Virus genome (UHGV): UHGV-0316020
DNA: 10,452 nucleotides
From: a virus
Strand: one strand, 5' to 3'
Shown here: piece by piece, positions 1 through 10,371 of the stretch
Numbering within the stretch: position 1 is the stretch's first letter
Layout: each line of letters begins with the position of its first letter
Translations under genes and position numbers: made by a program
The notes under the pieces: generated by a model
Told to the model about the DNA's origin: nothing
Databases searched by the model: none
What the model saw: the letters and a program-made list of their open reading frames with translations, nothing else

Positions 1-220
1 CCTGTACATAGATTTGTGTAATTGCCTGATTTTGATATGTTCAATCCAGCATCAAATGAAGGTTAATTTATGGACGAAAAACAGTTACAGACTCTGGCTA
101 ACGAACTGGCCAAAAACCTCAAAACCCCTGAAGACCTCAGTCAGTTTGATCGAATTAACCTTCATTTGATGCTGGATTGAACATATCAAAATCAGGCAAT
201 TACACAAATCTATGTACAGG
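1..220. mobile_element. MITE-like element: 68-bp perfect terminal inverted repeats (1-68 and 153-220) around an 84-bp core carrying the start of an IS256-family-like transposase gene
   Basis: Reverse complement of 153-220 equals 1-68 exactly; first mismatch at positions 69/152. The core has an ATG at 70 encoding MDEKQLQTLANELAKNLKTPEDLSQFD, which I recognise as an IS256/Mutator-type transposase N-terminus. The left arm starts at window position 1, so the repeat may extend beyond the window. Confidence 0.5.
70..180 (+). pseudogene. truncated transposase N-terminal fragment (36 codons) that reads into the right inverted repeat
   Basis: ORF MDEKQLQTLANELAKNLKTPEDLSQFDRINLHLMLD; only the first ~28 residues look transposase-like, the rest is encoded by the repeat arm. 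Too short to be a functional transposase. Confidence 0.4.
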
Positions 221-287
221 CTCAGCTACTGGATATTGACGCTTATCAACTGTAATTTTCAGGGGCTATGAAGCCCCTTTTTATGTC

Positions 288-1058
288 TCAATAAGTGCCC
301 TTCTTATTCGGATTCACAGAGTACTTTCGTAAAGCATTACCCGACTTAAGCACTTTTGAAGCCTGCTCATTAGCTGAGGCTGTGAAGGTGCTCTCACCAT
401 TTTTAACGCTAACGCTCTTAGAGCACGTTACACGGGCTTTTAATGCTTCATCTGATAACTCACTTGCCGAATAGCTAAAAAGCTCTTTACAGGTCAGCAT
501 AGGTCTTCCAAGACTCGTTGTAGTGTTGCCAGTGTTCTTTTTACTGGTAGCACCACCGTCATTCGTGGTAGCAGTTTTGCCAGTAGCTGCTGAAACATCA
601 GTTTGCCCTACGATTGAACGAAATTCTACACCTTGGAAGGTCATCTGAATACGAAGACCATTAGCAATGGTATGCTCTTTACTCGCTTTAAACTGAGTAA
701 TGATACTATCAGTGATAGATATTCCATCTTTACAAACAATAGTGATGATTTGCTTCTGGTCTCGCCATTGTTCAACCGTAGAAATAAAGGTTTCTACAAG
801 TTGCCCCTGTCTGGTTAATAGAACTGAACCCGTCGAATCAACCACTACAACACCGCTGATAGAGATGGTCTTAGGTGCTCTCTGAACATTATCAGTTATA
901 GTTTGCCCCGATTGCATAGCCTGAGTTGTCACCATCATCGGTGAGTCATAGTCCATCTGTTCAGTAGCTGTTAAGGCAAGAAAAGATTCTACATTATCTC
1001 TAAGGTGAAAATAGATACCATCTTTACCTGAGTATCTAATTTGCTTTGTGTCAAACAT
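288..1058 (-). CDS. phage tail protein encoded immediately downstream of the tape measure gene (possibly distal-tail/Dit-like); function not recognised from sequence
   Basis: 256-aa ORF; RBS AGGA 9 nt upstream of the ATG; same strand and directly downstream of the tape measure gene; beta-rich N-terminal half, Thr/Ser/Gly-rich linker, small C-terminal domain. Product assignment is by synteny only. Confidence 0.4.
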
Positions 1059-1189
1059 TGTTGTTATTCCTATTCTGTTAAGCGTGAGCTACGTGAAATC
1101 TAATTTTTGATGTTGGTATCTGTTCAGAAGAAATCACGTAGCATTCGACTATTCATAGTTGAATCGTCATACTAGATAAAGATTAATAG

Positions 1190-1207
1190 ATTGCCATGTG
1201 TGGCAAT
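1190..1207 (-). terminator. weak hairpin (ATTGCCA-tgtg-TGGCAAT) 25 nt downstream of the tape measure stop; possible partial terminator or RNA processing site
   Basis: 7-bp perfect inverted repeat with 4-nt loop; on the minus strand it is followed by a moderately U-rich stretch, not a clean U-tract. Confidence 0.25.
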
Positions 1208-1231
1208 AAATATTAGTAGTTCTAACATTGT

Positions 1232-3298
1232 TTATTCCTCTGGGTAAGCTGAGCTAATCAAGGTATCTTCCTGCATACGATTAATATGAGATGTGGTTCT
1301 TTCATCAATAACCTTTCCATCAAGTACCGTCTGAGTTGTGATATTGATTGTCTGAGGCTGAATGTTTACTGACGGCTTGATAACCTTTAAATCTTGTGTG
1401 AATGTTTCCACTCGACCTTTCAGATTATTTAATGCTTCAGGTGAAAACTGTGGAACATCCTTTGATTTGCCCTGAACCATAGCCCATAAAACAGCAGCTA
1501 AAGAGTTCATGTCACCAGTCAATGCTTGGTCTGTGGGTTCCACCTTTGACCTTACAACTTTGTCAATTGGATTATCTGACTTACTCATCTGACGTTCATA
1601 GAACGGTTTAACAATGGAGTTAATCACATCAGTTGCCATACCGACAATCATTACTTTGGTAATTGCATCAGCTACAGATAATTTTCCTTTACCACCTTCA
1701 ACACTACCGGAACGTGAATTAATTCTTCCTGCTGCTGTATTTGCTACATTTCCAAGCGTGGAAATAGCCCTAATTAAGCTCCAGATGCCACCTACAGCAC
1801 CAATACCAGACCTTACAGCAACAATACCAGCAAGTCCCTTTAATGCACTTAACAGGCCATTTGCGATACCATCAGCTACAGCTTTTTGAGTGTCATTTAA
1901 TTCTCTGTAAGCAAGGGTCACTCTGTCAAAGAATCCCTGCACTCGGTAGCTAATCGTGGTTAAATCATCAATACCGTTTGACATACTTTTCATCAAGTTG
2001 CCAAAATGTTCACCAAGATTTTTAGATTGCCCACCTAGCGAATTAAGTAAATTAGTCAGTGACCTTGTAAAGTCTGTTAACCCTTCCTGTGAACCATCGA
2101 ACATTAAGGCCAGATTATTATTCCATGAATTACTTAAGCGGCCTAACTGCGTCTGAGTAGAGTTAATAATCTTTTCCCATCCACCCGCTTTATCAATCAT
2201 CAAGCCCATCTGTTTAGCGACTTTAGGGAGAACATCTTTAGAAAGAACCTTACCGTCTTTCATGGCCTTGTCTAATTCTTCCGTAGTCATCCCAAGGCTT
2301 CTGGCAAATAACTGGAAAGCACCTGCCATTCTGTCACCTAGCTGACCGCGTAACTCTTCAGCTTGAATCTTTCCTTTAGAAGCCATCTGCTCGAAAGCTT
2401 TTAGAATCCCGTTAATCTCATCAGTGCTTAAACCCATTAGTCGGGATGTACCAATCACATTAGAAAATAAGGATTCTTTCTGGTCTGCATTCATATCACC
2501 AGCACCAGCGGAAAACTTAGCAAAGCTGCTTAATGTCTCAATCTGGTCTACACCAGTATTATTAGCAAGATTCTTAACAAATTCTGTAGCTCGTTTAGCA
2601 CCTTCATCACCTAAAACGAATTGTGCCGCTCGTTGTGATGCTTCTTTTTTCAGACCAACCTCCATAATCCGCCTGTAAGCTTCTAAGGCTGTCTGAAAAC
2701 TATAAATGGCTGTACCTGCTTTGATTGCACTTGTAGCTAATACATCCAGACCATTCGAAGCATTTTCACTGTGATTATTTTTGCTGGTGGTCTTGTTAAA
2801 CTTAGAAAGTGTTTCACGTAGATTTTGATTTAACTTTGCTAACTCACGATTAAAAGCTTCGTTCCCAAGTGTCTTGGATTTACTGCTTAAGCTGTAATAC
2901 TGGCTTCTAAAATACTTCTCAAGCAGAGGATTAAAGTCACGAAGTTTGCTCATATTCACGCTATGCGCTGCTGTGATTGCTCTGTTGCCGCTAATTCGTG
3001 GTTGCCTTGCTGCTTTAACAGTTTCTTCAACCTGAGTTTTGAACTTAAAGACCTTCGTAGATTTGGCTCTTTCCTCCAGCTTATTAAAAGTCTGGTTAAT
3101 CTTCTTTTCCATATTCCCCAAAGAGGCTGTTAAATCCTTATCCATGCTCTTTGGGTTAACTTTAAATGCTTTATTTAAATTACGCTCAATCTTTGTAGCT
3201 GACTGCAAAGCTGCCTTTTCAACTCTTTGCAGTCCCTTAATAACGTTCTCATTGAAGCCTAGCTCAACGATAAAACTATCAACTGTGAATTTGCTCAT
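1232..3298 (-). CDS. phage tail tape measure protein (TP901-family-type core)
   Basis: 688-aa ORF with helical repeat-rich N-terminus, a conserved tape-measure core (..EELRGQLGDRMAGAFQLFARSLGMTTEELDKAMKDGKVLSKDVLPKVAKQMG..) and a Gly-rich hydrophobic segment (GIANGLLSALKGLAGIVAVRSGIGAVGGIW); RBS GAGGTGA upstream of the ATG. Confidence 0.85.
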   Translation of the reverse strand: MSKFTVDSFIVELGFNENVIKGLQRVEKAALQSATKIERNLNKAFKVNPKSMDKDLTASLGNMEKKINQTFNKLEERAKSTKVFKFKTQVEETVKAARQPRISGNRAITAAHSVNMSKLRDFNPLLEKYFRSQYYSLSSKSKTLGNEAFNRELAKLNQNLRETLSKFNKTTSKNNHSENASNGLDVLATSAIKAGTAIYSFQTALEAYRRIMEVGLKKEASQRAAQFVLGDEGAKRATEFVKNLANNTGVDQIETLSSFAKFSAGAGDMNADQKESLFSNVIGTSRLMGLSTDEINGILKAFEQMASKGKIQAEELRGQLGDRMAGAFQLFARSLGMTTEELDKAMKDGKVLSKDVLPKVAKQMGLMIDKAGGWEKIINSTQTQLGRLSNSWNNNLALMFDGSQEGLTDFTRSLTNLLNSLGGQSKNLGEHFGNLMKSMSNGIDDLTTISYRVQGFFDRVTLAYRELNDTQKAVADGIANGLLSALKGLAGIVAVRSGIGAVGGIWSLIRAISTLGNVANTAAGRINSRSGSVEGGKGKLSVADAITKVMIVGMATDVINSIVKPFYERQMSKSDNPIDKVVRSKVEPTDQALTGDMNSLAAVLWAMVQGKSKDVPQFSPEALNNLKGRVETFTQDLKVIKPSVNIQPQTINITTQTVLDGKVIDERTTSHINRMQEDTLISSAYPEE

Positions 3299-3347
3299 TC
3301 ATGTTTTTCACCTCATAGACTTCGGATAGAAGACTATCCTCATATAC

Positions 3348-3388
3348 AAAAAAGGGAGAGCTACCGATGTCACTCGATAATCTCTCCC
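3348..3388 (-). terminator. intrinsic terminator-like hairpin between the 70-aa ORF and the tape measure gene
   Basis: GGGAGAG (3354-3360) pairs with CTCTCCC (3382-3388), 21-nt loop with an internal CGA/TCG pairing; on the minus strand the stem is followed directly by UUUUUUGU (complement of 3346-3353). Confidence 0.45.
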
Positions 3389-3414
3389 GTTGATTTTTAC
3401 CCAACCAATTCTTT

Positions 3415-3627
3415 TTAATGTCTGACAAGATAATGTAATTCCGTTTCACCTATGATTTGGGCATCAGAAGGGATACGGTCGATACACCACTTTGGAATCT
3501 TGCGTGTTTTTGGTTTGTGTGAGGTGATGTAATGACGGTTATTCTTAATTCGTAGCTTTTGTCTATTTGGTTGTAGCTGGAGTCTTTCGCAAACAGACCG
3601 AATAGTCTCTAAACGTTCTTCAAACAT
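3415..3627 (-). CDS. hypothetical small basic protein (70 aa)
   Basis: ORF with RBS GAGGTGA 6 nt upstream of the ATG; starts 23 bp after the stop of the 234-aa ORF; Lys/Arg-rich; no motif recognised. Confidence 0.6.
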   Translation of the reverse strand: MFEERLETIRSVCERLQLQPNRQKLRIKNNRHYITSHKPKTRKIPKWCIDRIPSDAQIIGETELHYLVRH

Positions 3628-3650
3628 TAATCACCTCACATATTGCATAA

Positions 3651-4355
3651 TCAAACAGCCTTGCTAAATTCTCGTGGAACACTCAGAAAATCATTGAAGC
3701 TGATAATCTGTGCCAACTCTTGACGGTACTCCTTAGCCAGCGCTTGATGGTCACTAATCAGCTTAGCCAGTCTTGATTTCAGCAAATTAATCTCATTTTC
3801 TCTTGCTTTCATCAGTTTCTCTTTGGCAATTTCTTCAAGCTCAGCTTGTGATTTATCAGCAACAATTAGAGACAATCGATGTGGTGCTCTGACAGCTCTT
3901 TCTGTACGAATAACTCTTTGACCTTCTGGTAAATCTGCAATCACTTTACCAATCTCTACAGGGTCATACCCCCAACCGTCACGGTCTAGTCGAGAGAAAT
4001 AAGCATAAGAATTGGTTTGAAGCTCCATTAAAATAGCCATTTCGTCAATTTCGTCTTCAAGCTTGGACTGAATTTTCTCGTAAACACTTCTCATTGCTTC
4101 TTGAGAGTCTTTAATAGCTTGGAAATATCGGCGTTGTAGCTTCAACTTCAAATCAAGTTCACACCGTTCGTTCATAGAAAAATCAATTTCAACTCTTGGA
4201 ATCTCTAGTGGTTCTGGTGGAATATATGGACCTTTATTTACTTCGTGTGATTCCCGCCAAGCTCTATCAAAAGATTCACGCAAACTTAATTCGTGAATAT
4301 CAAGTGCACTTGGTCTGTTCTCAACAATCATTTCGTGTTCATTACGAATAGACAT
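3651..4355 (-). CDS. hypothetical protein (234 aa) with coiled-coil-like C-terminal half
   Basis: ORF with strong RBS AAGAGGTGA 7 nt upstream of the ATG; charged heptad-like C-terminus (..EINLLKSRLAKLISDHQALAKEYRQELAQI..); no family recognised. Confidence 0.7.
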   Translation of the reverse strand: MSIRNEHEMIVENRPSALDIHELSLRESFDRAWRESHEVNKGPYIPPEPLEIPRVEIDFSMNERCELDLKLKLQRRYFQAIKDSQEAMRSVYEKIQSKLEDEIDEMAILMELQTNSYAYFSRLDRDGWGYDPVEIGKVIADLPEGQRVIRTERAVRAPHRLSLIVADKSQAELEEIAKEKLMKARENEINLLKSRLAKLISDHQALAKEYRQELAQIISFNDFLSVPREFSKAV

Positions 4356-4463
4356 TATTTTTTCACCTCTTGGTTTTTGTTTGTTTGTTTTTCAATTTAT
4401 AGAAGCACACTCAGCAATCAGAGGTGAAGAGTCTGACTGAACAAGAACCTGCCAAGTGTGCCT

Positions 4464-4536
4464 TTAAAAACTGAAAAAGCCCTAAACATAGGTGATTCGG
4501 ATATTCATGGAATCATCCTTATCTGTGAAGGGCTTT
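4464..4536 (-). terminator. compound stem-loop with trailing U-tract in the 3' region of the small-protein operon (non-canonical terminator candidate)
   Basis: Outer stem AAAGCCCT (4476-4483) / AGGGCTTT (4529-4536) with inner stem TGATTC/GAATCA; on the minus strand followed by UUCAGUUUUUAAAGG. The loop is long, so the terminator call is tentative. Confidence 0.3.
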
Positions 4537-4596
4537 GGAGGTTTGCTTTATAACGTTAACGAAGTTTCAGGAAAAACTTTCTTTAAAAGCTCTGTT

Positions 4597-4635
4597 TAAA
4601 AACTCTTAAAGAAAGCCCTAACTCATGATTAGGGC
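4597..4635 (-). terminator. intrinsic terminator-like hairpin for the minus-strand small-protein operon
   Basis: Stem GCCCTAA (4615-4621) / TTAGGGC (4629-4635), 7-nt loop; on the minus strand followed by UUUCUUUAAGAGUUUUU. Confidence 0.45.
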
Positions 4636-4864
4636 AAAGCTGTAAAGGATTCAATAACGAATGAACAAAGACTTTTTGAGATGACCTCTCAAGTTATATA
4701 AGAGGTCATGTAGCGAAAAGCATTGCACCTTTCCAACTCAGAATATAGTTATCATCGATGTAGAATGATTAATATTTTAATTCAAGGAGAATTGCTCTCC
4801 CTATATATAAAATTATGTCATGCTCAAGGTTATTTGTCAACAGCTTTTAACAGATTGGTAACAT

Positions 4865-4930
4865 TTATACTTTAATAGATGCACCTGCAATCATACCAAT
4901 CAATACAAAACAGATAATCACCAATTCCAT
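4865..4930 (-). CDS. candidate 21-aa hydrophobic peptide (MELVIICFVLIGMIAGASIKV), translationally coupled to the 107-aa ORF
   Basis: Its ATG overlaps the TAA stop of the upstream ORF (TAATG at 4928-4932); GAGG lies about 10 nt upstream; the peptide is essentially a single transmembrane-like helix. Not in the supplied ORF track because it is too short. Confidence 0.35.
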   Translation of the reverse strand: MELVIICFVLIGMIAGASIKV

Positions 4931-5253
4931 TAATGCACCACCCTCGAATCCGTCACCAAAATATTGTCAGCGTACAAAATTGCTATAGCCGCCTTGAGAT
5001 ATTTTTCAGGGCTAACGCTGTATCGGTTAGTTTCCTCAATAATAAGGCGCTTCATGTTTGAGTCGGTAACGGGAAACATAAAACGTGGGTCACCAGTTTC
5101 AATTTCCTGAATAAAATCTTCAATTGTTTCTGAGTTATCAGCCATTAGCTTTAGTAATTTATCAAAGTCAATTGATACACCGGAATCACTGAAAGCCTGA
5201 ATCATCAGAGCGGTGTCGCTATCAACGAAAATCTGTAGCGGGAAATTATTCAT
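4930..5253 (-). CDS. hypothetical acidic protein (107 aa)
   Basis: ORF with RBS AGAGGA 7 nt upstream of the ATG; acidic composition; no motif recognised. Confidence 0.65.
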   Translation of the reverse strand: MNNFPLQIFVDSDTALMIQAFSDSGVSIDFDKLLKLMADNSETIEDFIQEIETGDPRFMFPVTDSNMKRLIIEETNRYSVSPEKYLKAAIAILYADNILVTDSRVVH

Positions 5254-5391
5254 TTTTAAAATCCTCTAAAAACACATCTTAAATCTGCCAAAATAGCCAT
5301 TCTGAGGCCAGTAACCATGCGGGTTACAGAGGGAGTGAGACACCTTAGTAATAGGGTAGCTCATCTTTGAGTCTCACTCATTCTCACAGAC

Positions 5392-5778
5392 TTACACAGA
5401 CGCTTTAATCTTGTAGTATTGACTACGTGATAAACCGTATTTCTCAGAAATATAACTTTGTGATTGTCCTTTGGTGATTGCATCAATGATTAAATCTTTA
5501 TCGTATCTGTTGCCATTGGCTTTGTGCTTGTCACCATTTTTAATAGAGTTGAAACTCTCAATTAATTTAATGGCGTCTTTAAGGTCGTCTTCGTAAGCAT
5601 AATCAAAACCCCTGATAAACTCGAAATCACCATTATCTTTTTGTGCTTCAGTCCAGATATCAAATCTTGAGGCTAATTGCTGGTGGGTAAACTTGGGTTT
5701 ATTGGTTTGTGTTACGTCTTTCCAGACTTTACCGTCAAATCTTACCAAATGGTCACGATGTTTATAAAAGTCATACAT
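5392..5778 (-). CDS. hypothetical protein with C-terminal helix-turn-helix (possible transcriptional regulator)
   Basis: 128-aa ORF; its ATG overlaps the stop of the upstream 93-aa ORF (TAATG at 5776-5780); C-terminus SQSYISEKYGLSRSQYYKIK has the helix-turn-recognition-helix pattern. Confidence 0.65.
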   Translation of the reverse strand: MYDFYKHRDHLVRFDGKVWKDVTQTNKPKFTHQQLASRFDIWTEAQKDNGDFEFIRGFDYAYEDDLKDAIKLIESFNSIKNGDKHKANGNRYDKDLIIDAITKGQSQSYISEKYGLSRSQYYKIKASV

Positions 5779-6059
5779 TAAACCTCCATCGCTAATTTGT
5801 GAATTTTGATGCTTAGCAACCTTGCTAAATCCAGTCCAAAAGCATTTAAAGATTTCAGACTATCAAGGTCATCTTGCTTAATCCTGATATGGTGTCTTGC
5901 AGCCTCTAAGCGACTATTAAGCAAATCTTGTTCGTTAATATCACGGTTAATTGCAAGCTTCATCACTGCTGAGTGTGGCAGACCTGTAATGTTTTTGATT
6001 CGGTTAAGTTCTTCAAAGGCTGTCTTTGTAACTCTGGTTAGCGTGTGTTTATTTCCCAT
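5778..6059 (-). CDS. hypothetical protein (93 aa; start revised to the internal ATG)
   Basis: The track ORF 5778..6161 overlaps the upstream gene by 100 nt and has no RBS; the ATG at 6057-6059 (MGNKHTLTRV..) is preceded by AGAGGAA and sits 2 nt after the stop of the 184-aa ORF. Confidence 0.6.
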   Translation of the reverse strand: MGNKHTLTRVTKTAFEELNRIKNITGLPHSAVMKLAINRDINEQDLLNSRLEAARHHIRIKQDDLDSLKSLNAFGLDLARLLSIKIHKLAMEV

Positions 6060-6060
6060 T

Positions 6061-6615
6061 TTAAAATTCCTCTGCTTGTGCGTATACGTCAAATTCAAAG
6101 TCTGGTTCACTGGTTGTAAGGCTGATATTTCCAACTTCCGCATGATGATTAATTGTCTCAATAACTTTCATACAAATAGTGGCTAAGTTAGCGCAATATT
6201 TATCACTTGGTAATTCGTAGCTAAGTCTGGTTGCTTGTCTTTGAAGATGGCTCGTCACTGTGCTTGAACTAATCTCATCAAGACTTCGCAGTAAATAAAA
6301 AACCTTCCGGTGATAATTATCTCTTCCAAGACTGCGACAAGTACCGATAATTACATCTTCAATTTTTGATGGTAGTTGCTCGTAAGAATCAAAGCTCATC
6401 AAGAAAGTTTTTAAAGTATTCTCTTTTTCTTTGCGTACTGGCATAAATCTGTCTCGTGGCGTAATGCTACGAATGACCGCTTCAATGTTTTTACGTTCGG
6501 TTTTGGAAAAGGCTGGTACTTCGTAGCTGGTGGGGGTGTCTGTGTAAGCGTAGGAGTTGTGCTTGTTGCGTTCTCTTGATGCCTGAAGCATCGCTCTAAA
6601 TTCTGAATCCTGCAT
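6061..6615 (-). CDS. hypothetical protein (184 aa), first gene of the minus-strand small-protein operon
   Basis: ORF directly downstream of a TTGACA-17-TAGTAT promoter; GAGGG upstream of the ATG; no motif recognised. Confidence 0.7.
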   Translation of the reverse strand: MQDSEFRAMLQASRERNKHNSYAYTDTPTSYEVPAFSKTERKNIEAVIRSITPRDRFMPVRKEKENTLKTFLMSFDSYEQLPSKIEDVIIGTCRSLGRDNYHRKVFYLLRSLDEISSSTVTSHLQRQATRLSYELPSDKYCANLATICMKVIETINHHAEVGNISLTTSEPDFEFDVYAQAEEF

Positions 6616-6666
6616 TCATATTCTGACCCTCATGAGATGTTATTATTCTGTTAACTTATATATACA

Positions 6667-6695
6667 ATACTAGCATTTTCAAAGACTAATGTCAA
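6667..6695 (-). promoter_or_regulatory. sigma70-like promoter for the 184/93/128/107-aa operon
   Basis: On the minus strand: TTGACA (complement of 6690-6695), 17-nt spacer, TAGTAT (complement of 6667-6672), about 50 nt upstream of the ATG at 6615. Confidence 0.5.
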
Positions 6696-6702
6696 GCATT
6701 TT

Positions 6703-6732
6703 TTAACATTTCATTAACATCTGTGGTATAAT
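6703..6732 (+). promoter_or_regulatory. divergent sigma70-like promoter with extended -10
   Basis: TTAACA (6703-6708), 18-nt spacer, TGgTATAAT (6724-6732); its -35 lies 8 bp from the -35 of the minus-strand promoter, giving a back-to-back arrangement. Confidence 0.45.
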
Positions 6733-6912: not shown

Positions 6913-7089
6913 ATGGTAAATCTCCCTCCTGAGCTGGGGTCACCTGATGTATGGGCTGGTGGAGGCGTTGGGCTGATTGCAGGTCTGCTACTCCGCTACG
7001 TCCTCGTCAGAGTGCTTGTTGTCTTTAAACTGTTCGGTCGTACATGGACGCTTGACCTTAAGGATAATGACCACACAGAACCCCGTTAA
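6913..7089 (+). CDS. small single-pass membrane protein (58 aa)
   Basis: ATG at 6913 preceded by AAGGAAAA at about 6-nt spacing; the track ORF starts further upstream at a TTG with no RBS. Hydrophobic segment WAGGGVGLIAGLLLRYVLVRVLVVF. Looks more GC-rich than its neighbours. Confidence 0.5.
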   Translation: MVNLPPELGSPDVWAGGGVGLIAGLLLRYVLVRVLVVFKLFGRTWTLDLKDNDHTEPR

Positions 7090-7147
7090 CCCCCCTTCAA
7101 AACCCCCTGTACGAGATGACAGATAGAAGTCTATGGTATAGGGGTGC

Positions 7148-7568: not shown

Positions 7569-8237
7569 TCAGCCCAACCTTTGAACAATCCTGTAAGTGG
7601 TGCTTAGAGGCATTCTTAGCGATTCTGCGATGCTCTTGATGGATTGCCCTTGGTCATGCATTTTAATCAACCTGTCAAGCGTCTGTGCATCGTGTATATG
7701 AGGTCTTCCACGTAAACCACCCCTGTTAACCACGGCAAGTAAAAGCATTGTGTCGCCACAATAAATTGTCTGGGTAACTTCAACTTTCGGTTTGCGGGGT
7801 GTGTTCCTGTATATCAAAACGCAACTTGGAAACGGTGAACGCGCTGCAACACCTTTCTTCCCTGCTGGTGGAAGGTATTTGACTGCTCGGTGTAACGTTC
7901 GAATCTCATGCAGGAAGGGGTTTGTATATACACACCGAAGCCAGTAAGTTGTCTTTGACCTGTGCGGAACCAGACATACACACACATCAGCTTCAGGGGC
8001 TTTTGAGAGGAACTGTTCAGCCATGCTAAACGGCGGGTTAACGAAGACCCGTTCACCAACCCACGATTGACGGCTTATATCATCGGTGAACCGTGGCAAC
8101 AATGCGTCATGCTCAGTTGCAGCACCATCTAAAGTGAAGTTAAACTCACGATGCAGGTTATGAAATAAACGATACGGTGTACGCCAGTCATCAGAACCAC
8201 CATGATAACGACCGACATTGATTATTGGATGTGACAC
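7569..8237 (-). CDS. Dam-family (phage-type, PF05869-like) DNA N6-adenine methyltransferase with a C-terminal serine-recombinase-like GRP+HTH extension
   Basis: GTG start with RBS AAGAGGGG upstream. N-terminal ~150 aa carry DWRTP, FTLDGAA, VFVNPPFS (NPPF catalytic motif), CLVPHRSKTTYW and FPSCVLIY. The final ~55 aa (..NRGGLRGRPHIHDAQTLDRLIKMHDQGQSIKSIAESLRMPLSTTYRIVQRLG) resemble a resolvase/invertase C-terminal DNA-binding domain. Confidence 0.8.
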   Translation of the reverse strand: MSHPIINVGRYHGGSDDWRTPYRLFHNLHREFNFTLDGAATEHDALLPRFTDDISRQSWVGERVFVNPPFSMAEQFLSKAPEADVCVCLVPHRSKTTYWLRCVYTNPFLHEIRTLHRAVKYLPPAGKKGVAARSPFPSCVLIYRNTPRKPKVEVTQTIYCGDTMLLLAVVNRGGLRGRPHIHDAQTLDRLIKMHDQGQSIKSIAESLRMPLSTTYRIVQRLG

Positions 8238-9154: not shown

Positions 9155-9703
9155 TTATTTAGCAAGTCTGTAATAAGTTGCTCTAGAGATTCCTAACTCT
9201 TCCTGAATCTGCAACCTCGTCTTACCTTGTGAAATAAGCGCCTGTACAGCCTCTGAAGAAGCTTTTACAGGCCTCCCCATATGTACCCCTTCAGCTTTAG
9301 CACGTTCAATACCAGCCTTTCTACGTTCACTGATAAGGTCTTTTTCAAGGTCAGCTAAACCAGCCATCATAGTAAGCATTGCTTTACCGATTGGTGTAGA
9401 CAGGTCAAAACCTTCACGTAAAGAAACAACCCTCACACCTTTAGTCTGTAGTGCCTCCACGTTAGAGAGCACATCAACGGTATTACGCCCTAAACGGTCA
9501 ATAGCTACCACAACTAACGTATCGTCACACCTTACATAGTTCATCATGTCTCTAAAACCATCTCTGCTGGTGGCCTTTGTAGCTCCTGAGACAGCCTCAT
9601 CAATAAACCATTTATCGACCTTGTGAACCTTCTCTATCTGTAGTTTCTGGTTGTCTACAGTCTGGTCTTGTGTTGATACCCTGCAATAACCAATCACCGC
9701 CAT
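9155..9703 (-). CDS. small serine recombinase (resolvase / Hin-Gin-type invertase family)
   Basis: 182-aa ORF; N-terminal IGYCRVSTQDQ with the catalytic Ser at position 10; VVAIDRLGRNT; E-helix ..ERRKAGIERAKAEGVHMGRP; C-terminal HTH LQIQEELGISRATYYRL; RBS AGGGG upstream of the ATG. Confidence 0.9.
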   Translation of the reverse strand: MAVIGYCRVSTQDQTVDNQKLQIEKVHKVDKWFIDEAVSGATKATSRDGFRDMMNYVRCDDTLVVVAIDRLGRNTVDVLSNVEALQTKGVRVVSLREGFDLSTPIGKAMLTMMAGLADLEKDLISERRKAGIERAKAEGVHMGRPVKASSEAVQALISQGKTRLQIQEELGISRATYYRLAK

Positions 9704-10126: not shown

Positions 10127-10371
10127 TAGATACTTGGAAATCTACTATTAAATTGCATAGTCATTCACCTGATATTGTCAAATGATTATGACTTCAATGA
10201 CCCTTGAATGAAGTCTATTCGGTTTTCTAAGAGACCTGTTAAAAACAGGACAATATCAGGTGAATGACTATGCAATTTAATAGTAGATTTCCAAGTATCT
10301 ACCTGTTTTTAACAGGTCTCTTAGAAAACCGAATAGACTTCATTCAAGGGTCATTGAAGTCATAATCATTT
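10127..10371. repeat. interleaved inverted repeat A-B-A'-B': A 10127-10179, B 10180-10249, A' 10249-10301 (reverse complement of A), B' 10302-10371 (reverse complement of B)
   Basis: Verified base by base: 10249-10301 is the exact reverse complement of 10127-10179, and 10302-10371 is the exact reverse complement of 10180-10249. B ends in the near-palindrome CCTGTTAAAAACAGG. Confidence 0.8.

Follow-up and report, generated by a model that had tools for sequence, protein, structure and literature searches.

A putative repeat-controlled operon in a satellite-like Escherichia coli island linked to Felix O1-like phages

The operon and its island

The stretch of DNA considered here, UHGV virus genome UHGV-0316020, is 10,452 nucleotides (nt) long; we call it the window, and all coordinates refer to it unless another record is named. 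It holds five small genes, which encode proteins of 184, 93, 128 and 107 amino acids (aa), named p184, p93, p128 and p107, and a 21-aa peptide, pep21. The five genes are real, co-oriented and coupled. A first-pass annotation, made from the sequence without database searches, had listed them, and all five open reading frames (ORFs) lie on the minus strand where it placed them (Table 1). Both TAATG overlaps that it reported, at 5776-5780 and 4928-4932, can be read directly in the sequence, and each gene is preceded by a Shine-Dalgarno sequence of its own. The junction between p184 and p93 needs a correction, since the 2-nt gap given at 6059-6061 is in fact a gap of 1 nt: the TAA stop codon (6061-6063) and the ATG start codon (6057-6059) are separated by position 6060. 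Thus, the tight packing claimed for the operon holds for the overlaps and the 1-nt gap, but not for the 138-nt spacer between p128 and p107. A promoter and terminator scan of this spacer gave no match, and its fold lacks significance (z = -1.7). It exists in two sequence types, each of which follows the type of cassette found in the p128 slot.

Across related loci, changes in p184, p93, p128 and p107 fall in excess on third codon positions, which supports the coding nature of these four genes. The peptide ORF keeps the same TAATG overlap in 19 of 19 loci, where it occurs as two allele families of 21 aa and 25 aa; in the 25-aa family, 7 of the 16 variable codons are purely synonymous. Given the conserved overlap and the many synonymous changes, the peptide ORF is real as well.

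Among 5,426 complete E. coli genomes, 508 (~9%) have DNA that matches the locus, always on the chromosome. The match covers at least 80% of the query, that is, the full set of the window type, in 85 of the 508 genomes, and many genomes hold fragments only. The window is 99.9% identical to an ~11.7-kb island between tonB and yciI in strain CUPS04. The order of genes in that island is a large serine recombinase (LSR; 506 aa, with Resolvase, Recombinase and Zn-ribbon domains), a Dit-like tail protein, a tape measure protein (TMP), proteins of 70 and 234 aa, the five operon genes, a divergent 58-aa membrane ORF, a Dam methyltransferase fused to a helix-turn-helix (HTH) domain, and a small serine invertase. 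The same organisation is found at three or more sites: at tonB/yciI and wrbA/ymdF it lies between intact host genes, and a third site is the interior of yecE, which is split by the insertion. The copies measure 11.3-11.8 kb, are bounded by the LSR and keep the gene order constant. Recurrence of one organisation at other sites, together with the split yecE, identifies a discrete integrative island. Its only virion genes are the TMP gene and the tail gene that follows TMP. No capsid, portal, terminase or lysis genes were found in the island, and therefore it is not a prophage. The first-pass annotation had proposed a phage accessory (moron) locus. This proposal does not fit, as the host element is not a prophage and all related islands have the operon core, in which the regulatory centre lies.

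The island is a mosaic of alleles, with identities of 40-97% for TMP, 25-98% for p234, 57-88% for p184 and 30-100% for p93. All islands have p107, the peptide and a p93-like gene. Other members are exchanged. About half of the genomes with an island encode a 71-aa protein and an HNH_3 endonuclease in the p128 slot, and a few loci have other small genes there; at L005 and L013, a variant of the island has a 311-aa protein of the HTH_36 (Rep) type and one of 96 aa in place of p184. Thus, the joint conservation on which the first-pass annotation had staked its operon applies to p107, the peptide and the p93-like gene, but p128 and p184 are swapped in sister islands. Both p184 and p128 are apparently exchangeable cassettes of the operon.

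Table 1. Features of the window discussed in the text, in order of position
Feature	Position	Strand	Remarks
IS1414 (IS256-like) end	1-223		sits where the recombinase 3' end would be
Post-TMP Dit-like tail protein, 256 aa	288-1058	minus	downstream of leader
TMP	1232-3298	minus	downstream of leader
p70	3415-3627	minus	downstream of leader
p234	3651-4355	minus	downstream of leader
Structured leader	4356-4806	minus	451 nt; precedes tail-gene module
Long hairpin	4388-4478		in leader
Terminator-like hairpins	4608-4635, 4572-4615, 4474-4536		in leader; terminator scan
Covarying hairpin	4681-4709		in leader
Invariant hairpin	4715-4733		in leader
Second (putative late) promoter, TTGACA-17-(TG)CATAAT	4812-4840	minus	11/12 matches plus TG; extended -10
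Putative operator/iteron O3, TGTTACCAATCTGTTAA	4847-4863	minus	directly after pep21 stop; 6 nt upstream of second-promoter -35
pep21, MELVIICFVLIGMIAGASIKV	4865-4930	minus	21-aa single-helix hydrophobic peptide; translationally coupled to p107 via TAATG
p107	4930-5253	minus	ORF
Spacer p128/p107	5254-5391	minus	138 nt; intergenic
p128	5392-5778	minus	ORF
p93	5778-6059	minus	ATG start, same as PGAP annotation in identical island
p184	6061-6615	minus	ORF
Putative operator/iteron O1, TGTTATTATTCTGTTAA	6638-6654	plus	about +7 to +23 of operon transcript
Operon (putative early, leftward) promoter, TTGACA-17-TAGTAT	6667-6695	minus	consensus scan, 10/12 matches
Putative operator/iteron O2, TGTTAATGAAATGTTAA	6703-6719	minus	7 nt upstream of operon -35; overlaps divergent -35 and spacer
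Divergent promoter, TTAACA-18-(TG)TATAAT	6703-6732	plus	11/12 matches plus TG; conserved
58-aa single-pass membrane ORF	6913-7089	plus	begins MVNLPPELGSPDVWAGGG; 5' untranslated region (UTR) ~170 nt
Dam-HTH	7569-8237	minus	
Small serine invertase	9155-9703	minus	

Promoters, repeats and the phage connection

The promoter that the first-pass annotation had read in front of the operon was located (6695-6667 in the direction of transcription), and it hardly varies across 11 loci, including those in which the identity of p184 falls to 57-65%. Conservation upstream of p184 is far higher than in p184 itself. A divergent promoter stands back to back with that of the operon and precedes the 58-aa membrane ORF, which PGAP annotates in a sister island as WP_000247749.1. 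What looked like an operator-type inverted repeat in this region resolves into the motif TGTTA-N6-TGTTAA. The window contains exactly 3 perfect copies of it, where 0.01 are expected by chance. Two of them flank the operon promoter, and the third lies between the end of pep21 and a second promoter. All three positions hold the motif in almost all sister islands, and it is nearly absent from the adjoining host DNA. The L005 variant has an internal promoter directly before its p93-like gene, and a copy of the motif overlaps the spacer and -10 hexamer of this promoter. A copy in this place is the classic arrangement for autorepression. The variants of the operator do not co-vary with the p93 or p184 alleles, and no LexA box was found at the promoters. 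One exact CTGT-N8-ACAG occurs at 7107-7122 (plus strand), just past the 58-aa ORF; it is within chance expectation and does not lie at a promoter. In O111 strains, the 58-aa ORF and the invertase persist as an island remnant beside yciI (L025).

The DNA beyond pep21 had been described as a structured 3' region of the operon with two terminator-like hairpins. The structure is indeed strong (z = -7.8 for the 451-nt leader) and at least three terminator-like hairpins are present, but the region carries a promoter of its own. Since this near-consensus promoter lies at its start, the region is a separate promoter-leader unit and not a mere 3' UTR. The second promoter is almost invariant in 16 loci, although both its flanks diverge, and a terminator of the form GCCCTT...AGGGC-TTTTT occurs in 16 of 16 loci. 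Both the promoters and the leader show far stronger conservation than the coding sequence beside them. The hairpin at 4681-4709 was missed by RNAalifold on a MAFFT alignment and recovered with single-sequence folds; 12 sequence variants retain it, and 3 of its 10 pairs show compensatory changes. Because the stem arms were taken from the own fold of each sequence, the pairing percentage is biased upwards. The whole downstream module (288-4355, minus strand), with the genes for p234, p70, TMP and the post-TMP protein, lies beyond the leader. We infer that the second promoter and the leader may constitute an attenuator-type unit that gates the tail genes.

The tail genes point to one group of phages. 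The only full-length phage matches of the island TMP are in Ounavirinae, at ~29-30% identity to Felixounavirus TMPs. The product of the gene directly after TMP in Felixounavirus LMP33 matches the 256-aa tail protein at 65% identity, and as this match sits immediately after the phage TMP, the tail pair of the island is syntenic with that of the phage.

The repeat motif leads to the same phages. The array-bearing 38.5-kb half of LMP33 (L027) contains 10 exact copies of TGTTA-N6-TGTTAA against 0.01 expected. Nine of these fall within ~520 bp of a ~1-kb stretch that has no genes, lies between convergent blocks of genes and is filled with (C/T)TTGTTA(A/G) repeats in 11-nt phase (the array spans L027 13044-13800, or about 62.9-63.7 kb of the record). 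In a second Felixounavirus, fjerdesal, this region also holds 10 exact copies (L028 1594-2170; at most 0.01 expected), and the repeat-array region is conserved in 256 Ounavirinae records. A scan of the phage region revealed no strong sigma-70 promoter. The Felix O1 genome paper does not describe the repeat region and states that temporal regulation in Felix O1 is unknown (PMC3185647). Likewise, the literature searched, which did not cover subscription papers, contained no description of the island, of its proteins or of the repeat array in the phages. Since the repeat is common to island and phage, one DNA-binding specificity may connect the switch of the island to the phage.

Products of the operon and neighbouring cargo

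The first-pass annotation had recognised no motif in the products other than an HTH, and the family libraries agree: p184, p93, p128 and p107 have no significant match in Pfam, PHROGs, NCBIfam or PADLOC. Thus, profile searches do not mark them as ordinary phage replication or packaging proteins, a possibility that the same annotation had raised. Sequence searches of the PDB with p184, p93 and p128, and with profiles of p93 and p107, gave nothing meaningful; a coiled-coil match of p93 was discarded as an artefact. At the DNA level, neither the 50,697 phage records nor the 72,556 plasmids contain a match to the operon locus. A tblastn search with six concatenated proteins found nothing in the 72,556 plasmids and one weak match in the 50,697 phage genomes, to the core of p184, in an uninformative context of Aeromonas phage 85AhydR10PP.

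p93 is the product best suited to reading a repeat. It is basic (isoelectric point, pI, 9.8), and across alleles of 30-97% identity it keeps the residues H5 T6 T8 R9 and I58 R59 I60, which fall in two short strand-like motifs, H-T-x-T-R and I-R-I. Five of eight alleles have weak matches to the Pfam family DndE, which is of the ribbon-helix-helix (RHH) type, and the N- and C-terminal halves align weakly in register (hhalign E = 0.0018). The basic face of an RHH protein is present by sequence, with strands HTLTR and IRIK in the window allele. These features lead us to infer that p93 may be a second double-RHH protein of the operon, suited to DNA binding.

The other candidate of this fold is p107, the most conserved member of the operon (69-100% identity in all loci), for which the listed homologues are near-identical E. 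coli proteins only. It is predicted to be an acidic, single-chain double-RHH protein: the modelled fold has two beta-alpha-alpha units in one chain, as in a pseudo-dimer, and its best structural match is TraY. In this respect, it resembles the single-chain double-RHH proteins F-plasmid TraY, DndE, AvtR and VirC2. In contrast to these, p107 shares no sequence similarity with them and is strongly acidic (pI 4.3), with the hydrophobic strands LQIFV and RFMFPV and without a basic DNA-binding face; furthermore, the relaxase and the Dnd partner genes that would accompany TraY and DndE are absent from the island. p93 and p107 as paralogues were considered and rejected, as no relationship between them is detectable.

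p184 is an orphan and all-helical. Its N-terminus is basic (pI 9.3), its residues 61-165 form a confident helical core, and its tail, DFEFD...EEF, is acidic. The predicted structure of p184 has no fold match in the PDB and may represent a novel helical fold. In a library of viral structures, it matches only uncharacterised phage proteins, including some of Pseudomonas and Klebsiella lytic phages. The listed homologues are near-identical E. coli proteins, and an exhaustive search yields a tiny family. Distant relatives are a 171-aa protein of Aeromonas phage 85AhydR10PP (L020 5926-6441) and proteins of ~275-290 aa in a two-gene Pantoea islet that is unrelated to the island (L022/L023, about 9809-10690). 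Kinship between p184 and its Rep-like replacement was rejected, as the two show no similarity. For p128, the C-terminal HTH named in the first-pass annotation amounts to sub-threshold Pfam matches (HTH_28, E = 0.003; HTH_7, E = 0.03). Only 18 clusters of p128 exist among 5.8 billion proteins, all from Escherichia.

Side observations were also made on the tail-gene module and on the right-hand part of the island. p234, a coiled-coil protein encoded upstream of TMP, has two alleles that are only ~25% identical (window 3651-4355; L002 8085-8795); PGAP labels one allele 'transposase', which Pfam does not support, and some islands carry an extra 102-aa gene beside it. p70 was considered as a homologue of the Felixounavirus tape-measure chaperone, and this was rejected. 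The right-hand cargo is variable, comprising Dam-HTH, an AP2-domain protein, 221- and 277-aa proteins, and invertases. In the window, it consists of an orphan phage-type Dam methyltransferase with a C-terminal, resolvase-type HTH and a nearby Hin/Gin-like small serine invertase, and imperfect inverted repeats (8401-8420/9057-9076 and 8475-8498/9037-9060) lie between the two. A perfect nested palindrome at 10127-10371, with arms of 70 and 53 nt that are 100% complementary, arises from an inverted duplication of 122 nt (10180-10301), which the CUPS04 island, identical in other respects, lacks; either a genuine rearrangement or an error of assembly may lie behind it. Rfam gave only miRNA-type noise on palindromes, which this palindrome explains, and a tRNA search found none. 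Sister islands L017 (11015-13543) and L018 (11018-13584) have ~2.5 kb without an annotated gene between p184 and the cargo gene.

What the operon may do

Beyond the sequence anatomy, its conservation, the motif statistics and the predicted folds, everything that follows is inference; this includes the identity of the repeat binder, the sign of its regulation (positive or negative) and any dependence on the phage. We tentatively favour the explanation that the five genes form the iteron-regulated early, or control, operon in an apparently undescribed island that is satellite-like and linked to Felix O1. The island would integrate through its LSR. The operon would start at one of two back-to-back promoters, which are bracketed by inverted copies of TGTTA-N6-TGTTAA, and the third copy lies just upstream of the second promoter, after the last operon gene. 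A transcript from there would have to cross the ~450-nt leader, with its hairpins and intrinsic terminators, before it reaches the tail genes. By binding the repeat, p93 would autoregulate the operon, shut off the divergent promoter and act at the second promoter, and it could also bind the phage repeat array. Alternatively, a repeat-binding protein of the phage would act on the island sites. Judging from its sequence features, p93 is the most likely candidate binder, ahead of an iteron-binding protein of the phage. The HTH protein p128 and the helical p184 would serve as exchangeable specificity or accessory cassettes, and p107 and the 21- or 25-aa membrane peptide would be the invariant effectors. 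The operon is probably wired to Felix O1-like phages rather than a stray accessory set of a prophage.

Several points weigh against this explanation. The acidity of p107 argues against DNA binding, and the confidence of its model is moderate (pLDDT 73). The RHH reading of p93 draws on a sequence pattern, sub-threshold DndE matches and a weak internal repeat, and p184 and p128 offer no functional clue at all. The logic of the late promoter and terminators is built on consensus scans and folding. None of the operon proteins has a homologue in LMP33; homology between island and phage is limited to the two tail proteins, so a repeat binder common to both is hypothetical. Furthermore, no gene for replication or packaging can be recognised in the window variant, which makes it a putative satellite, and the insertion sequence (IS) IS1414 disrupts the recombinase gene in the genome that the window comes from, so that this copy of the island has probably lost its integrase and may be immobile.

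The pairing of a small hydrophobic peptide with an RHH-fold protein raises a different explanation, namely that the genes form a defence, abortive-infection or toxin-antitoxin-like module. The peptide would be a toxic or membrane-active effector, p107 would neutralise or regulate it, and the remaining genes would be sensors or regulators. The first-pass annotation had leaned this way, towards a toxin-antitoxin, abortive-infection or anti-defence module. The hydrophobic peptide is indeed a trait of type I systems, and the upstream protein of predicted RHH fold, with overlapping stop and start codons, recalls type II antitoxins. However, the pair sits inside a longer operon, the peptide has no leader of its own, and a plus-strand scan of 4300-5000 found no antisense promoter facing the peptide gene, as a type I system needs. 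p107 is an acidic, single-chain double-RHH protein by prediction, without the disordered toxin-binding tail typical of RHH antitoxins. No known toxin fold was seen, and no product matches a toxin or antitoxin family in Pfam, NCBIfam or PADLOC; no defence domain was detected in these libraries either, and the PADLOC-DB defence models gave 0 families for p184, p93, p128 and p107. The products rather look DNA-binding or RHH-folded, and the conserved operators and promoters of the operon suit a control region better than cargo. Thus, we consider a toxin or defence module unlikely.

A role in replication, excision or packaging appears about equally improbable. The TGTTA repeats would mimic the iteron array of the phage, as an origin or a pac-like site, and capture helper machinery; p184 would be an initiator or adaptor, the p128/HNH slot would be related to packaging, and the RHH proteins would be directionality or accessory factors. 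The phage array is origin-like in being gene-free, devoid of strong sigma-70 promoters and placed between convergent blocks. Besides, the p184 slot of sister islands holds a winged-helix protein of the Rep type (HTH_36), the p128 slot alternates with an HNH endonuclease, from a class known for accessory roles in phage packaging, and TraY, the best fold match of p107, is an accessory protein of DNA processing. Against this, the island has only three repeats, all of which are precisely placed relative to promoter hexamers. p184 itself is unlike the Rep-like protein or any replication protein, no terminase, portal or primase is present, and the HNH protein belongs to the HNH_3 family, co-occurs with AP2-type cargo and is homing-endonuclease-like. 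Finally, the locus could be an inert remnant of a decayed prophage, its motif a likeness to Felix O1-like phages by the same ancestry as the tail genes. The loss of an intact recombinase gene to IS1414 in the window copy, the many genomes with fragments only and the frequent IS insertions in island loci would fit such decay. This is nevertheless very improbable, as the same 11-12 kb organisation occurs at three integration sites, all ORFs are intact with a codon-position bias, the alleles are diverse in a mosaic manner without decay, conservation is higher in the promoters and operators than in the genes, and no Felixounavirus homologues of the operon genes exist as possible ancestors.

The favoured control operon can be set beside known systems. 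Like satellites in general, the island is a small integrated element with its own integrase and without most virion, replication and lysis genes. It is most reminiscent of the PLEs, elements similar to phage-inducible chromosomal islands, in being a chromosomal island in the 10-20 kb class, LSR-integrated, with orphan genes mostly on one strand, mosaic variants and a specific link to one family of virulent myoviruses. In contrast to the PLEs, it carries homologues of phage TMP and post-TMP genes, a DNA repeat is common to it and the phage, and a RepA-type gene is missing from the window variant; library scans found no PLE family, with PLE proteins not compared directly. Phage-inducible chromosomal islands (PICIs), their capsid-forming relatives (cfPICIs) and P4 resemble it in size and in general layout, with a terminal integrase, a divergent regulatory region, an operon for early genes and a hotspot of variable cargo. 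Here, however, the recombinase is a serine rather than a tyrosine enzyme and the presumed partner is a virulent phage; furthermore, searches of the window with Pfam, PHROG and NCBIfam found no AlpA, primase-replicase, Ppi/Rpp, TerS, capsid genes (as in cfPICIs) or Psu/Delta/Sid (as in P4).

The regulatory layout, for its part, recalls the lambdoid switch and the PR'-tR' unit: back-to-back promoters with flanking repeated operators, followed by a constitutive-looking second promoter, a short structured leader and terminators before the structural genes. Unlike in lambdoid phages, no proteins of the CI, Cro or Q families are present in the island, the operators are direct repeats in 11-bp phase, typical of RHH or iteron binders, and antitermination would be our own supposition. 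A short phased repeat common to the element and its presumed helper is also reminiscent of iteron control and of the sites that satellites mimic (P4 cos, PICI pac/cos), but the island repeats lie at promoters and number only three.

A further-reaching scenario builds on the control operon, and we regard it as speculative. The islands could be a PLE-like satellite family of virulent Felix O1-like phages in E. coli, Shigella and Salmonella, with the operon as a helper-responsive master switch. An iteron-binding protein, either p93 or that of the phage, would read the repeat on both genomes and turn on the operon and, via the terminator-rich leader, a replacement pair of TMP and baseplate-hub proteins, which would remodel or sabotage the phage tail. 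p107 and the peptide would act on the phage or the envelope.

Felix O1-like phages are widely used in the typing of Salmonella and E. coli, in biocontrol and in therapy. More than 250 Ounavirinae genomes have a conserved, gene-free repeat array of ~550 bp, the function of which (origin, pac site or regulator array) seems undescribed. With two Felix O1-type tail genes and the repeat of the phage at its promoters, the island is a candidate satellite or defence element affecting these phages. The 17-bp operator, the candidate binder p93, the terminator-gated tail module and the p107-peptide pair, which has no known counterpart, provide testable handles on how it may do so.

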